Source: an uncultured Chloroflexia bacterium (GTDB taxonomy: Bacteria; Chloroflexota; Limnocylindria; Limnocylindrales; CSP1-4). Taken from it: a stretch of 64,000 nucleotides of DNA. The notes under the pieces were generated by a model. That model ran no database searches. It was not told where the DNA came from and saw nothing but the letters and a program-made list of their open reading frames with translations. Within the stretch, counting starts at the first letter, position 1; each line of letters begins with the position of its first letter. Below are positions 46,194 through 51,689 of this stretch, piece after piece. A program made the translations under genes and the position numbers. The stretch covers positions 233,791-297,790 of the forward strand of contig CAVQJC010000004.1 of the NCBI GenBank assembly GCA_963712745.1, read 5' to 3'.

Positions 46194-47471
46194 ATGGCCG
46201 GGACCGATCTGCTGACACTGGAGCAGGCTCGCGCGCGCATGCTCGAGGACGTGCTGCCGCTGCGGGCCGGGTCGTTGCCGCTGGCCGAGGCACTCGGACG
46301 CGTGCTGGCAGAGGAGTCGGTGGCCTTGCTGACACTGCCACCCTGGGACAACTCCGCCATGGACGGGTTCGCCGTCCGCAGCCACGACGTCGCAGCTGCG
46401 AGCGCCGACGACCCGGTCACGCTCCGGGTGGTGGGCGAGGTCGCAGCCGGGCACGAGCCCGAGGCCTCCGTCGAGCCCGGCACGGCCATGCGCGTGTTGA
46501 CCGGCGGGATGCTGCCGCCCGGAGCCGATGCCGTGGTCAAGGTCGAGGACACCGACGCTCCCCCGGGTGTTGCCGAGCTGCCGGCCACGATCGCGGTCCG
46601 GTCTGCCGTGGCCCGGGGCAAGGACATCCGGCTGGCCGGCAGCGACATGCGCCAGGGCGACCGCCTGCTCGCCCCCGGGACCCGCATCAACCCGCGCACC
46701 ATCTCCGTGCTGGCGGCGGCCGGACACGCTCGAGTCAACGTCCATCGCCTCCCGCGAGTGGGCATCCTCTCGACCGGTGACGAGCTGACAGCGATCGGCG
46801 AGCCGCTTGGGCCGGCCTCGATCGCCGACAGCAACAGCGAGTCGCTCGCCGCGCAGGTCACGGCCGCCGGTGCCGAACCGGTGCGACTCGGCATCGCCGC
46901 CGACGATCGCGAGACCATCCGCGAGCGGGTCCTCCAAGGCATCCTGGCGACCGACGTGCTCGTGGTCAGCGGCGGCGTTTCCGTGGGCGCCCACGACCAC
47001 GTCAAGGAGGTCTTCGAAGAGGTCGGCACGCTCGATCTCTGGCGCGTGGCCATCCAGCCGGGCAAGCCGCTGGCCTACGGCAGCGCCCCCCGACCAGACG
47101 GTGGCTACTGCCTGCTCTTCGGCCTGCCGGGCAATCCGGTGAGCAGTTTCGTGACCTTCGAGCTGTTCGTCCGCCCGGTGCTGCGGCGTCTGCGTGGCGA
47201 GTCCGGAGACCAGGGTCGCCTGACGGTCCGGGCACGACTGGCCGAGGCAGTCTCGAAGTCGGCACAACGCCGTGCCTTCATCCGCGTGCGCCTGGAGCCC
47301 GATCCCGACCGTGCCGGGGGCCTGCTCGCCAGGCCGTCCGGCGCGCAGGGCTCCCACGTGCTCTCGGCACTGGCCCAGGCCGACGGACTGGCCGTCATCC
47401 CCGAGGGCCCGCCGAGCGTGTCCGCCGATACCGAAGTGGAGGTCATCCGACTTGACGTCGAAGTCGCGTGA
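46194..47471 (+). CDS. moeA: Molybdopterin molybdenumtransferase MoeA
   Basis: DNSAMDGFAV, TGGMLPPGADAVV, STGDEL, SGGVSVG, PGKP and GLPGNPVS. Confidence 0.96.
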   Translation: MAGTDLLTLEQARARMLEDVLPLRAGSLPLAEALGRVLAEESVALLTLPPWDNSAMDGFAVRSHDVAAASADDPVTLRVVGEVAAGHEPEASVEPGTAMRVLTGGMLPPGADAVVKVEDTDAPPGVAELPATIAVRSAVARGKDIRLAGSDMRQGDRLLAPGTRINPRTISVLAAAGHARVNVHRLPRVGILSTGDELTAIGEPLGPASIADSNSESLAAQVTAAGAEPVRLGIAADDRETIRERVLQGILATDVLVVSGGVSVGAHDHVKEVFEEVGTLDLWRVAIQPGKPLAYGSAPRPDGGYCLLFGLPGNPVSSFVTFELFVRPVLRRLRGESGDQGRLTVRARLAEAVSKSAQRRAFIRVRLEPDPDRAGGLLARPSGAQGSHVLSALAQADGLAVIPEGPPSVSADTEVEVIRLDVEVA

Positions 47472-48066
47472 GTCGTGGCCGGGAGGCCAGAAGAACCAAG
47501 CGCCGGCCAGTCGCAAGGAGCGCCGCCGTCTGAGCCACGTCGACCGCGTGGGCAGACCACGCATGGTCGACGTGAGCGACAAGCCGGTGAGCCCGCGGCG
47601 CGCGGTCGCCGAAGCCACGGTCAAGATGGACCAGGACACGCTCACGCTCATCATCGACGGATCGGGGTCCAAGGGCGACGTGCTCAGCGTGGCCGAGCTG
47701 GCCGGGATCATGGCCGCCAAGCGCACGGCCGAGCTCATCCCGCTGTGTCATCCGCTCCCCCTCACCGATCTGAGCGTGGAGATCACGCCCGACCGCAAGG
47801 CAGGGACGTTGACCATCACCACCGCGGCCGCGACGACGGCGCAGACCGGGGTCGAGATGGAGGCCATGACCGCAGCCGCGGTGGCCGCACTCACCGTCTA
47901 CGACATGGTCAAGAGCGCCGACCGTTTCGTGACCATCACCGCGGTCCGGTTGCTCGAGAAGAGCGGCGGCGAGAGCGGCCACTGGAAGCGACCCGCGCCC
48001 AAGGAGACCGCTGCCGGAGCGGAAGCCCAGCCGGCCAAGCGGGCCCGCAGCCCGCGGAAGGGATAG
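47468..48066 (+). CDS. moaC: Cyclic pyranopterin monophosphate synthase MoaC (5' end probably frameshifted near 47483)
   Basis: LSHVD...MVDVSDK, KGDVL, AAKRTAELIPLCHP and TGVEMEAM...YDMVKS. Confidence 0.93.
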
Positions 48067-48075
48067 GGCAGCGCC

Positions 48076-48576
48076 ATGCCGCACGAATCGAGCGTCGAGG
48101 GCCTGGGCGCGCTGGTGCTGACCGTCAGCGACGGAGTCAGTGCCGGCGCCCGCGAGGACCGCAGCGGAGCGGTGGTAGCGGAGCGCCTGAGCGCGCTGGG
48201 CTTCGCGGTCCGGCGCGCGGTGGTGGCAGACGAGCCGGACCAGATCGCACGCATCGTGGCCGAGGCCGCGGACGGCGGGACCAGACTCGTGGTCACCTCC
48301 GGCGGCACCGGGCTCGGGCCGCGTGATCGCACGCCCGAAGGCGTTGGCACGATCGTCGACTACGTCGTGCCCGGCTTCGGCGAGGCCATGCGCGCGGAGG
48401 GCCGCACGCACACGCCACTCGCCTCGCTCTCGCGCTCGTTCGGGGCCGTCCGCGGGCAGACCCTCATCATCTGCGTGCCGGGCAGCCCGAAAGGTGCCCT
48501 CGAGTCACTTGACGCGGTCGACATGATCCTGGGCCACACGCTTGAGACGCTGGGCGGCCGGACGGCTCACTCCTAG
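48076..48576 (+). CDS. MogA/MoaB molybdopterin adenylyltransferase
   Basis: LTVSD, DRSG, TSGGTGLGPRDRTPE, LSRS and VPGSP. Confidence 0.92.
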   Translation: MPHESSVEGLGALVLTVSDGVSAGAREDRSGAVVAERLSALGFAVRRAVVADEPDQIARIVAEAADGGTRLVVTSGGTGLGPRDRTPEGVGTIVDYVVPGFGEAMRAEGRTHTPLASLSRSFGAVRGQTLIICVPGSPKGALESLDAVDMILGHTLETLGGRTAHS

Positions 48577-48617: not shown

Positions 48618-49181
48618 ATGCGCTGTCCACACTGCGGGACGCTGGACGGCCGGGTCATCGACTCCCGGGATCTCGACGATTCGACCACCGTCCGCCGGCG
48701 CCGCGAATGCTCTTCCTGCCGTTCGCGCTACACGACCTATGAGCGCGTCGAATCGGCGCGCCTCATCGTGGTCAAGAACAACGGCAGCCGCGAGGAGTTC
48801 GACCGCGACAAACTCGCCGAGGGCCTCGGCAAGTCGCTCGTGCGCCGGCCGGTGGGGGAGGGTGCCGCCGATGAAGCCGCCGATGACATCGAAGCCACCC
48901 TCCGCGCCGGCGGTGTCAACGAAGTCACCTCCAGGGAGATCGGCGAGATGGCCATGGAACGGCTGCGAGCGCTCGACCACATCGCCTTCATCCGCTTCAT
49001 GAGCGTGTACCAGTCGTTCGACGACATCGAGCAACTCAAGCAGGAGGTCGACGCGCTCTACGACGAGCGCAGTGACCGCGTGCCGGGCCAGACGACGCTG
49101 AGGCTGGTAGCGGAAGATGGGGCCATCACACCCATCGGCCCGCGCGGGACTCCCAGGCGGCGACCGACCAAGCGCAAGTAG
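48618..49181 (+). CDS. nrdR: Transcriptional repressor NrdR
   Basis: MRCPHC...VIDSR...[20 protein letters not shown] cone and AFIRFMSVY. Confidence 0.96.
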
Positions 49182-49188
49182 GGAGCCC

Positions 49189-50832
49189 ATGAGCGTCCTC
49201 GCCGACCGCGACATCCGTACCGCCCTGCAGGAGGGGCGGATTCGTATCGACCCCTTCGACGAGGATTGCCTCCAGCCGTCCTCGGTCGACCTCCACCTCG
49301 ACCGGGAGTTCCGCGTCTTCCACAACTATCGCTACGACCGTATCGACCCGCGCACCGAGCAGCCCGACCTGACCGAAGCCACCGCCATCGACGGCGACGA
49401 GCCCTTCATCCTCCACCCGGGCGAGTTCGTGCTCGGCCAGACGCTCGAATGGGTGGAGCTGCCCGACGACCTCGTCTCCCGACTGGAAGGGAAGGCGCTG
49501 GCGCTCGACACACCGGTCCCCACCCCGACCGGATGGCGGACGATGGGCGACCTGATGCCGGGCGACTACGTCTTCGATGAGCGGGGGGCACCGACGCCGG
49601 TCGTCGCGGCCACCGCGCCCATGTTGGATCGACCGTGCCGCGAAGTGACATTCTCGGATGGAGGACGAGTCGTGGCCGATGCGGCGCATCGATGGGTGAC
49701 CGTCGACAGGAACAGCCACCTGAGGGCCCGGAGTATCTCGCGGATCCGCACCACCGATGAGATCGCCCGCACGATCCGGGTGCGGGGAGAGATGAACCAC
49801 CACGTCGCGCTCGCCGGACCGGTCCAGTACCCGCATCGGCTGGACCTTCCCATCGACCCGTACACGCTCGGTGCGTGGCTGGGAGATGGCGCAACGACCG
49901 CTGCTGAGATCACCTGCTCTGACGAGCAGATCCTCGAGCGGATCAGCGGTGACGGCTACGAGGTCAGGCGACTCTCGTACGCCCCCGGACTGCACCGGAT
50001 CGGCGGTATCGGCCAGACGCGAGATCCCCGGACCGGGCGCAATGTGCGCAACGGAGCGCTCGCGAGCAGCCTGCGCGGCCTCGGTCTGCTGGAGGGCAAG
50101 TTCGTGCCCCGCCCGTACCTGGAGGCAGGCATCGAGCAGCGGCAGGCGCTGCTCGGCGGTCTCATGGACACAGACGGGTTCGTGGAAGACCGCGCCGGTC
50201 GGTGCGAATTCACGAGTACCCGGGAGGGGCTGGCCGACGACGTCGTAGAACTGGCGGCAAGCCTCGGCTTCCGGCCGGTCAAGTCCGTCGGTCGGGCGAT
50301 GCTCGATGGCATCGACCATGGGCCGACGTATCGGGTCAGGTTCACCCCCGACCGGCCGGTGTTCGGGCTATCCCGAGAACTGCGACGTCAGCAGCCGGCG
50401 GATGCCCGTTTCCACCGCTTCCGCGCAGTCGACGTTGTCCGAGAGATACCGTCGGTCCCGGTCCGCTGCATCCAGGTGGGTTCGCCCAGCGGTCAGTTCC
50501 TCATCACCAAGTCGTTCATCCCGACACACAACAGCTCGCTGGGCCGCCTGGGCCTGCTCATCCACTCGACGGCCGGCTACGTGGACCCCGGATGGAAGGG
50601 CAACCTCACGCTCGAGCTCTCGAACGTGGCAAACCTGCCCATCGCCCTCTTCTTCGGCATGCGCATCGGCCAGATCTCGTTCTTCGAGATGTCCAGCCCG
50701 GTCGAGCGGCCCTATGGCAGCAAGGGCCTGGGTTCGCGCTACCAGGGCCAATCGACGCCCACCGCATCGGGCGCCTACCGCGACTTCGAGGCCAACCGGC
50801 GCATGACCAGGGGCGGACCCAGCAGCCCATGA
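49189..50832 (+). CDS. dcd: dCTP deaminase precursor containing an intein (spliced product about 201 aa)
   Basis: N-extein [10 protein letters not shown]...LHPGEFVLG...SRLEGK and C-extein [29 protein letters not shown]...RIGQ...YQGQ. Confidence 0.95.
49495..50532 (+). mobile_element. Class-3 intein (Ala1, WCT triad) with LAGLIDADG homing endonuclease, 346 aa
   Basis: Begins [14 protein letters not shown]; block B DAAHRW; LAGLIDADG motifs LGAWLGDG and [10 protein letters not shown]; block F PVRCIQV; ends IPTHN followed by Ser. Confidence 0.95.
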
Positions 50833-51689
50833 CCATCGACGCCAGCGCCGAGTGGCGCGCCGATCTCGGTGGCGGCACCAGCATCACCCTCATACAGGCC
50901 GGCCTCTTCACGACCGACGCCGGCACGATCCTGGGCCCGGTCCCACGCGAGATGTGGGAACACCTCGTCGACGATGAGCTCGACGAGCGGCACCGTATCC
51001 CTCAGGCCCTCAACTGCCTCGTGGTCGAGACGCCGTCTGGCCGTGTCCTCGTCGAGACCGGCATCGGCGAACGCATGGACGACCACCACATGGAGCAGCG
51101 CGGCGTGCGCGGCGAGCCCATCCTGCCTTCACTCCGGACGGCCGGCTTCGACCCTCGGTCGGTCGACTACGTGGCGCTCTCACACCTGCACTTCGACCAC
51201 GCCGGCGGGCTGCTGACCGCGGCCGGGGAGTACGCCTTTCCCCGTGCGCGCATCGTGGCCCAGGCGGACGAGTGGGACTACGCCCTGGGCTCCAACCCGC
51301 GCCTGGTGGCCTCGTACGAGCAGGCCGAGCTTCGCCTCGCCGAAGCCTGGGCCCGGCCGGGTTCCGCAGACGGAGACGAGGAGCTCATGCCCGGCGTCGA
51401 GGTGCGCCGCACCAGCGGCCACTCGGGCGGTCACCAGGCCATCATCGTGCGCGGCCGCGACGAGACCGTGGCCTTCATCGGCGACCTCTTCATGCGCCCG
51501 TGGTCGGCCAACCCGCGCTGGATCACCTCGTTCGACGACTTCCCGCTGACGAGCGTGGAAGTCAAGGCCGCGCTCTTCGCGGAGGCTGCGGCCGAGGACT
51601 GGACCATCGTGCTCTCGCATGAGCCGCGCCGGCCGGTGGGCAAGCTGCGCCCGTACAAGGACAAGTACCGCTTCGAATCGCTCCTCTAG
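50829..51689 (+). CDS. MBL-fold metallo-hydrolase (YtnP-like)
   Basis: [20 protein letters not shown] and SHE. Confidence 0.9.

Follow-up and report, generated by a model that had tools for sequence, protein, structure and literature searches.

The K/T step of the Walker-A loop (a slash marks the splice junction throughout) has been described as the classic P-loop intein insertion, and the class-3 inteins of DnaB and terminase have been ascribed a common ancestry, with transfer between hosts made possible by the tolerance of the endonuclease for site variation (Kelley 2016, mBio). In the M. smegmatis DnaBi1 mini-intein (PDB 6bs8), the Trp-Cys-Thr (WCT) triplet consists of Trp67, Cys118 and Thr137, the DxxH motif of Asp62 and His65, and His138-Asn139 are the last two residues; the attack on the N-terminal junction is made by Cys118 as the catalytic nucleophile (Kelley 2018). 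A class-3 intein has also been reported to have switched from a terminase to a Cas4 exonuclease via similar nucleotide-binding sites (bioRxiv 10.1101/2025.01.02.630785), and the dCTP deaminase (Dcd) intein of cyanophage vB_AphaS-CL131 spliced when expressed in E. coli (PMC6293099). Here we consider a stretch of 64,000 nucleotides from an uncultured Chloroflexia bacterium (contig CAVQJC010000004.1, positions 233,791 to 297,790; hereafter the window), in which the dcd gene at 49189-50832 is interrupted by an insert that is, by all the sequence and fold tests that we applied, a class-3 intein, and whose relatives point to the P-loop family as its source although its host is not a P-loop enzyme.

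The dcd reading frame runs on the + strand from the ATG at 49189 to the TGA at 50832 and encodes a 547-aa product. TIGR02274 (dCTP deaminase) matches this product at E 7.8e-58, scoring 195 bits where the cut-off is 92.8; the match falls into two stretches, of which the second aligns profile positions 101-178 with residues 448-527; positions 1-100 of the Pfam DCD profile align with residues 3-102. From this two-piece match it follows that the insert comprises residues 103-448, that is, 346 aa encoded by 49495-50532. An initial annotation of this DNA had placed an insert of that length between EGK and SSLGR, and the reading frame and all the motifs it listed are indeed found there, arranged as follows.

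49189-49494, + strand: dcd N-extein, Dcd residues 1-102, ending ...RLEGK, 91% identical to the intein-free orthologue L001
49495-49794, + strand: intein N-terminal splicing region with blocks A and B, intein residues 1-100, including Ala1, Cys48, Asp62, His65 and Trp67 (the boundary at 100 is approximate)
49795-50394, + strand: LAGLIDADG homing-endonuclease domain, intein residues ~101-300 (boundaries approximate)
50395-50532, + strand: intein C-terminal splicing region with blocks F and G, intein residues 301-346, including Cys325 and Thr344-His345-Asn346
50533-50832, + strand: dcd C-extein and stop codon, starting Ser-Ser-Leu-Gly-Arg, with the Ser+1 codon AGC at 50533-50535

The junction lies between Lys102 and Ser103 in the numbering of the mature enzyme. 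For comparison we used the 80 nearest dcd loci, ranked by the 102-aa N-extein in one-genome-per-species contigs that are mostly Chloroflexota metagenome-assembled genomes (MAGs); the window's own genome is absent from this sample, in which the best N-extein is 91% identical. In 69 of these 80 genes EGK (or EGR) is joined directly to an SSLGR-type C-extein, two of them being frameshifted at this point. L001, an orthologue without the intein, matches M. tuberculosis Dcd:dUTPase (PDB 2qxx) at E 1e-71 and maps the insertion point between K101 and S102 of that structure. The Ser of the SSxxR motif at this point and the Arg four residues later are catalytic or substrate-binding in E. coli and M. tuberculosis Dcd. 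The exteins belong to the dCTP deaminase family both by profile score and by being contiguous in intein-free orthologues, their closest match being the bifunctional Dcd:dUTPase. Thus the host is an enzyme of the dUTPase superfamily (Pfam DCD, PDB 2qxx) that has the Gly-Lys/Ser-or-Thr junction of a classic P-loop insertion, EGK/SS, and lacks its Walker-A host; no P-loop NTPase family is found among the profile matches of the host protein.

The class-3 assignment rests on residues that can be named one by one. The insert carries Ala1, Asp62, His65 and Trp67 (the latter two in HRW), Cys325 (in VRC), Thr344-His345-Asn346 and Ser+1, with Cys48, Trp67 and Cys325 encoded at 49636-49638, 49693-49695 and 50467-50469. 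We assembled 124 Dcd inteins (the 120 best database matches, including the window's, and four divergent representatives), and in all 124, as in the window, position 1 is Ala, so that a Cys, Ser or Thr nucleophile is absent there, and the WCT triplet (Trp block B:12, Cys block F:4, Thr block G:5) is complete as Trp67, Cys325 and Thr344. The block B His65, the penultimate His345, the terminal Asn346 and Ser+1 are likewise those of class 3, and Asp62 gives the DxxH form. Ala1, His65, Trp67, Cys325, Thr344 and Asn346 are invariant in the set, together with the two endonuclease residues Asp131 and Asp227; His345 is 99% and Cys48 at least 98% conserved. The length is exactly 346 aa in 118 of the 124, and 123 of them have EGK/SSLGR flanks.

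The initial annotation had also noticed a likeness to the mycobacterial DnaB P-loop inteins, which structure comparison bears out. In a phmmer search of the insert against all PDB chains the best matches are the class-3 DnaB mini-inteins of M. chimaera (DnaB-1, 6rix and 6riy) and M. smegmatis (DnaBi1, 6bs8), at E 5e-28 to 9e-27. Intein residues 1-70 align with 6bs8 and 6rix gap-free (E ~1e-21 for that stretch), so that Ala1, Cys48, Asp62, His65 and Trp67 carry the same numbers, and the segment SVPVRC...PTHN aligns with residues 105-139 of 6bs8, Cys325 corresponding to Cys118 and Thr344-His345-Asn346 to 137-139. The precursor was modeled with AlphaFold from an alignment of 72 sequences (mean predicted local distance difference test score, pLDDT, 79.8; predicted template modeling score, pTM, 0.62; pLDDT below 50 for the junction residues 449-454), and the model was compared with known structures by Foldseek. 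The same three mini-inteins are matched with target TM scores of 0.84-0.86, which identifies the HINT fold, and 2qxx with a target TM score of 0.84; together with the endonuclease matches given next, the model and the fold search confirm, at the level of a predicted structure, a three-part fold of the precursor.

Between the splicing regions lies what is, by all sequence and fold measures used here, a two-motif LAGLIDADG homing endonuclease. The motifs occupy intein residues 125-133 (LGAWLGDGA, encoded at 49867-49893, with the catalytic Asp131) and 219-229 (11 residues encoded at 50149-50181, with the catalytic Asp227). Pfam LAGLIDADG_3 (E 3.3e-6) and Hom_end (E 1.3e-4) match the insert above their cut-offs. 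PI-SceI matches the intein by sequence at E 2e-6 (2.4e-6), the precursor model matches its fold (1ef0) at E 5e-17 by Foldseek, and the TliVMA intein 7qsu is matched by the same model at E 3e-13. Profile, PDB, conservation and fold evidence together thus uphold the class-3 assignment, the two-motif endonuclease and the active-site location that had been claimed from the sequence. In 44-45 pairs among the 10 alleles with DNA, the ratio of nonsynonymous to synonymous substitution rates (dN/dS) has a median of 0.18 in the N-terminal and 0.13 in the C-terminal splicing region, and of 0.16 (0.158) in the endonuclease; the exteins, taken as 49189-49494 and 50533-50778, have medians of 0.21 and 0.14. 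From these features the intein looks active and splicing-competent. The median dS is 1.09-1.22 in the intein compared with 0.72-0.78 in the exteins, about 1.6 times higher among the 10 alleles; intein lineages that predate the host alleles, codon bias or saturation may account for this.

Where did such an intein come from? A HMMER search with the intein alone against 1.84 billion representative proteins returned 18,230 relatives at E<=1e-3, 4,091 of them at E<=1e-30. The best 150 of the 18,230 yielded 105 proteins with 131 full-length copies; Ala is the first residue in 101 of these copies, THN closes 125, and 76 are inserted between GK and S, T or C. Pfam host labels were assigned by scanning 94 of the 105 proteins, all but 11; 70 of the 131 copies have no label, and the hosts recognized comprise terminase large subunits of four families, DnaB, primase-helicases, FtsK, AAA_5, an XPD-type helicase and a portal protein. 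In a tree of 147 inteins (quick maximum-likelihood search, unrooted), 19 of 20 Dcd inteins fall in one clade with a support of 99 in the Shimodaira-Hasegawa-like approximate likelihood ratio test (SH-aLRT), nested in a group of 65 rows (support 90) and in a clade of 109 rows (support 96) that otherwise hold inteins of terminase, DnaB and primase-helicase type; the sister group of the Dcd clade is a polytomy. We count at least 44 changes of host label across this tree, and host switching is therefore frequent in this class-3 intein family.

The outlying Dcd intein, P0174, is 47% identical and has the flanks GK/STLAR. In an approximately unbiased (AU) test on a subset of 65 rows, made up of 9 of the 20 Dcd inteins, 45 neighbors and 11 outgroups, a single Dcd origin that includes P0174 has a p-AU of 0.67, and the constrained tree has a log-likelihood 17 above that of a short free search; one origin of all the sampled Dcd inteins is not rejected. 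Dcd inteins are 44-77% identical to that of the window, P0174 being the lowest at 44-47%. The nearest relatives outside Dcd are at most 51% identical (terminase P0285), and because of this distance the switch was not recent. One DnaB host, P0216, shares the exact dcd-site hexapeptide GK/SSLG, three more hosts share five of its six residues, and the P0216 intein shows no particular closeness to the Dcd clade. Taken together, these sequence comparisons support a host switch from the P-loop-type class-3 family into Dcd. The ectopic jump from a Walker-A GK/S site that the initial annotation had suggested therefore stands as far as phylogeny and the 76 of 131 related inteins at such junctions go, with the amendments that the jump is not recent and that DnaB is only a candidate donor.

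Set against the systems described before, the Dcd intein shares with the DnaB mini-inteins, its best solved relatives, the residues and alignments listed above, and with DnaBi1 a GK/S junction at which Ser+1 is a functional host residue (Kelley 2018). Those inteins are only ~139-146 aa long, are without an endonuclease and lie in a helicase Walker-A loop, whereas the Dcd intein keeps a LAGLIDADG domain of ~200 aa in a host of dUTPase fold. The class-3 P-loop inteins of phage terminases and DnaB-like helicases are, like it, full-length with LAGLIDADG, ALALDTP...THN termini and a GK/S or GK/T junction, at 37-51% identity over all 346 residues; their Dcd relative differs in its host, a cellular nucleotide-metabolism enzyme without a P-loop, and in forming its own clade. 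The Bethlehem DnaB intein, which Tori reportedly described in 2010, is said to be of the class-3 P-loop type as well. The terminase-to-Cas4 switch resembles the one proposed for Dcd in that a class-3 intein passes between unrelated genes whose DNA for a nucleotide-binding motif looks alike and supplies a Ser, Thr or Cys at +1, but it happened recently, between phages that could be named as donor and recipient, at sites with 10+2 bases in common (bioRxiv 10.1101/2025.01.02.630785), whereas the Dcd switch is old, is without an identified donor, leads from a P-loop to a non-P-loop fold and ends in a cellular chromosome. The CL131 intein differs in being composed of HintN and an HNH endonuclease, in residing in a phage gene and in following residue 132 of a ~204-aa Dcd, apparently a different site (PMC6293099). 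PI-SceI, the VMA1 intein, is the best whole-fold match of the intein part and has the HINT and two-motif LAGLIDADG domains in common with it, but it belongs to class 1 (Cys1), has an extra DNA-recognition region and is only 17-18% identical. Overall, the Dcd case fits the existing framework of class-3 P-loop intein transfer.

The initial annotation had called Dcd an uncommon host, and this is right for the literature and wrong for the databases. We found no description of a class-3 Dcd intein in the literature on dCTP deaminase or dcd inteins and on extein switching, and the available part of one supplement lists a single dCTP deaminase intein in Bacteria (Chloroflexi) and another in Euryarchaeota (Novikova 2016). 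When proteins were searched with the intein region, 3,804 of the 8,000 scored reached E<=1e-3; among the matches listed, all 119 other proteins carry a DCD domain, are 461-563 aa long and have an intein 70-77% identical, which makes at least 119 further 90%-identity clusters of Dcd inteins. Their database names are plain dCTP deaminase, mostly from Chloroflexota and Limnocylindrales MAGs; the records include one from Frankiales and one JGI record titled ‘deaminase/intein/homing endonuclease’. The Dcd intein is rare in print and common in sequence data.

Among the 80 nearest dcd loci the intein is present at EGK/ in 11 (L005, L009, L010, L013, which ends at a contig edge, L026, L028, L033, which is frameshifted near the intein end, L038, L046, L049 and L057), and the 69 intein-free loci include the three exteins closest to the window (88-91% identity). 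On an extein tree (79 rows, L003 and L078 left out) the intein is scattered: the 12 intein-bearing rows need 11 state changes, compared with a mean of 11.4 for shuffled labels, showing no extra clustering, and at least three changes of intein presence are forced if only the well-supported branches are counted. The window itself groups with three empty alleles and one occupied allele (SH-aLRT 99). Two longer loci that had seemed to be further carriers, L027 (544 aa) and L073 (347 aa), were rejected as frameshift fusions with the downstream gene. Among 35 phage records with a relative of the Dcd N-extein the best, Saccharomonospora phage PIS 136, has an uninterrupted 582-bp coding sequence, and among the best 40 of 778 phage records matching the intein none is annotated as dCTP deaminase, leaving phage dcd unsupported as a bridge. 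In our view both vertical inheritance with losses and lateral transfer have shaped this distribution.

The DNA at the junction adds a hint of its own. In the 10 occupied alleles with a readable 3' flank, Ser+1 is always AGC and Ser+2 always TCG or TCC, whereas the 67 empty alleles are split at Ser+1 between 34 AGY and 33 TCN (Fisher p 0.004, naive to relatedness); Lys-1 is AAG in all 12 occupied alleles, and Arg at -1 occurs in 7 of the 67 empty alleles and only in these. Since the serine codons are synonymous, splicing chemistry cannot cause such a bias, and a DNA-level process is indicated; endonuclease target preference, co-conversion of the flanks or shared ancestry could each produce it, and the AGC bias is suggestive only. 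Two intein-free loci, L003 (3001-3760) and L078 (3001-3630), have a frameshift exactly at the insertion point (junction ~3307), in L003 by one extra base right after AAG and in L078 by small indels in the 15 bases that follow. As both loci are taken from MAG assemblies, these frameshifts may be sequencing errors; scars of endonuclease cutting are a conceivable alternative.

Let us assume, then, the following scenario, which we consider probable as a whole: an intact, splicing-competent class-3 intein with a LAGLIDADG endonuclease occupies the GK-SS loop of dcd, moves by homing and derives from an old member of the P-loop family. While the intein is in place the 547-aa precursor would be inactive, as proposed from the splitting of the GK-SS loop. 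By homology to the experimentally studied class-3 inteins, Cys325 in block F would attack the Lys102-Ala1 bond to form a thioester branch, the N-extein would be handed to Ser+1, Asn346 would cyclize and release the intein, and an O-to-N shift would restore the Lys-Ser bond, giving a Dcd of ~201 aa. Once released, the intein would serve as a homing endonuclease that cuts dcd alleles lacking it in the region of AAG/AGCTCG, and recombinational repair would copy the intein into the cut allele. As to ancestry, we suppose that a large class-3 family residing at GK/S or GK/T of Walker-A loops in phage terminases, DnaB and primase-helicases gave rise, probably once and long ago, to a switch into the same dipeptide-plus-serine context of a non-P-loop enzyme, and that the intein later persisted and moved among the dcd alleles of Chloroflexota, some Actinomycetota and Dormibacterota.

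Several observations weigh against this scenario or parts of it. Splicing and DNA cleavage are predictions here. Not all relatives sit at look-alike sites: 55 of the 131 related inteins lie outside GK followed by S, T or C, and such a site is not obligatory. The intein tree is unrooted and comes from a quick search, and the deep branches that matter have SH-aLRT values of 88-90 and are not starred. The flanks of four phage relatives (the DnaB of Brevibacterium phage Rousseau and the terminases of JonJames, YungMoney and Tomaszewski, with inteins 37-38% identical, one of them at ADE/T) share with the dcd site only 8-11 of the 18 bases of the core, in essence those of the GK and S or T codons, which is uninformative on the donor. 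Under a phylogenetic pairs test of little power, with only three independent pairs on well-supported branches, the AGC association has a median p of 1. Lastly, the pairwise identities of inteins and exteins correlate (Pearson 0.47, Spearman 0.32, 45 pairs), and part of the distribution of the intein may come from vertical descent with losses.

The last point, taken to its limit, gives the alternative to which we assign the most weight, unlikely as we think it: a resident intein that entered dcd once in an ancestor of Chloroflexota and was thereafter inherited mostly vertically and lost precisely and repeatedly, while its endonuclease, kept for some other reason or slowly decaying, no longer drives homing. 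Besides the correlation of r 0.47, it would agree with the possibility that all Dcd inteins form one clade and with the lack of any non-Dcd relative above 51% identity that would signal recent traffic between hosts. However, an endonuclease under a dN/dS of 0.16, with both catalytic Asp residues invariant in 124 of 124 inteins, does not look like one that has ceased to matter, and intein presence is scattered on the extein tree like random labels; nor does simple co-descent lead one to expect a higher median dS in the intein than in the exteins, or a bias of synonymous codons at the junction. The same invariant catalytic residues, in an intact reading frame and with dN/dS summarized as below 0.2 in intein and exteins alike (the two exteins being at 0.21 and 0.14), make it very improbable that the insert is an inactive relic that no longer splices, with dcd a pseudogene. 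The gene moreover keeps its Shine-Dalgarno sequence and its overlapping downstream gene, and we found no point in favor of this idea. We give as little credence to the reverse direction, in which the family arose in dcd and spread to P-loop ATPases. An unrooted intein tree would permit it, but the Dcd inteins form one tight clade (SH-aLRT 99) inside the 109-row clade (96) and the 65-row group that otherwise come from at least nine other kinds of host, and the 18,230 relatives span very diverse hosts and lengths.

A further thought, compatible with mobility, is that the intein has been domesticated as a conditional-splicing switch, a Cys48-Cys325 disulfide gating splicing, and hence Dcd activity and the dUMP/dTTP supply, by redox. 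Cys48 and Cys325 stand at the positions of Cys48 and Cys118 of M. smegmatis DnaBi1, which form an H2O2-induced disulfide that blocks splicing (Kelley 2018); Cys48 is at least 98% conserved in the 124 Dcd inteins, and dcd adjoins nrdR, a regulator of dNTP synthesis. Yet all Cys48 substitutions in DnaBi1 abolished splicing (Kelley 2018), so that the conservation may reflect catalysis or folding, the reading is drawn by homology to DnaBi1, and 69 of the 80 nearest dcd genes do without the intein; we consider this switch doubtful. About equally speculative is a bolder version of the scenario that we prefer, in which the endonuclease of the class-3 family recognizes little beyond the short DNA core for Gly-Lys/Ser or Thr and would thereby be a motif-homing element for any fold, Dcd would be its first documented landing outside the P-loop NTPases, and Cys48-Cys325 could make the dUMP supply redox-conditional.

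Apart from the intein itself, the surroundings of dcd deserve a brief description. Its two neighbors are as follows.

48618-49181, + strand: nrdR, upstream neighbor (Pfam Zn_ribbon_NrdR and ATP-cone)
50829-51689, + strand: gene for a metallo-beta-lactamase (MBL)-fold hydrolase, downstream neighbor (Pfam Lactamase_B, E 3e-18)

A GGGAG Shine-Dalgarno sequence precedes the ATG at 49189, 8 nt upstream of which lies the nrdR stop codon; the mechanical start of the reading frame at 49117 was discarded because an overlap with nrdR would result. At the other end, the ATGA at 50829-50832 makes the start codon of the MBL hydrolase gene overlap the dcd stop codon. The gene order nrdR-dcd-MBL hydrolase is conserved (window 48618-51689; L027, L073; P0158), and frameshifts in several public assemblies fuse reading frames of this cluster. 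Directly upstream of nrdR lies an ordinary-looking molybdenum-cofactor cluster (moeA, moaC and a MoaB/Mog-like gene) at 46194-48576. By tblastn there is no second copy of the intein in the window (next best E 0.29).

Two of the database proteins, P0275 (1023 aa) and P0278 (690 aa), contain a second, unrelated intein besides the class-3 intein at EGK/SS. Located only 12 residues farther downstream, it separates ...LLIHS from TAGFVD; its first residue is Ser and its end reads ...VSN/T. That of P0275 has LAGLIDADG motifs and that of P0278 is a mini-intein. Inteins thus occupy at least two sites in the active-site region of Dcd. Among the sampled dcd loci, three contigs are binned outside Chloroflexota, as Sulfotelmatobacter (Acidobacteriota; L007), Pleomorphomonadaceae (Pseudomonadota; L059) and Polarisedimenticolia (L060), while their dcd genes cluster among Chloroflexota MAG genes, L007 and L059 on zero-length end branches beside Chloroflexota rows of the extein tree; these placements are probably binning errors.

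Class-3 inteins, their clustering in P-loops and extein switching are already accepted, and the Dcd case extends this picture rather than overturning it. With closely related class-3 inteins at one GK/S or GK/T junction in P-loop proteins of at least nine kinds and in a single enzyme of another fold, the family amounts to a natural experiment in host switching, in which the DNA target of the endonuclease, the residues at the splice junction and selection for nucleotide-binding sites are the candidate limits on where an intein can land. The empty and occupied dcd alleles, differing in synonymous junction codons, form a ready set of substrates for cleavage tests. The element described here has the full length of a class-3 intein, an intact endonuclease and Ser+1, in a class for which our PDB searches returned only mini-intein structures.

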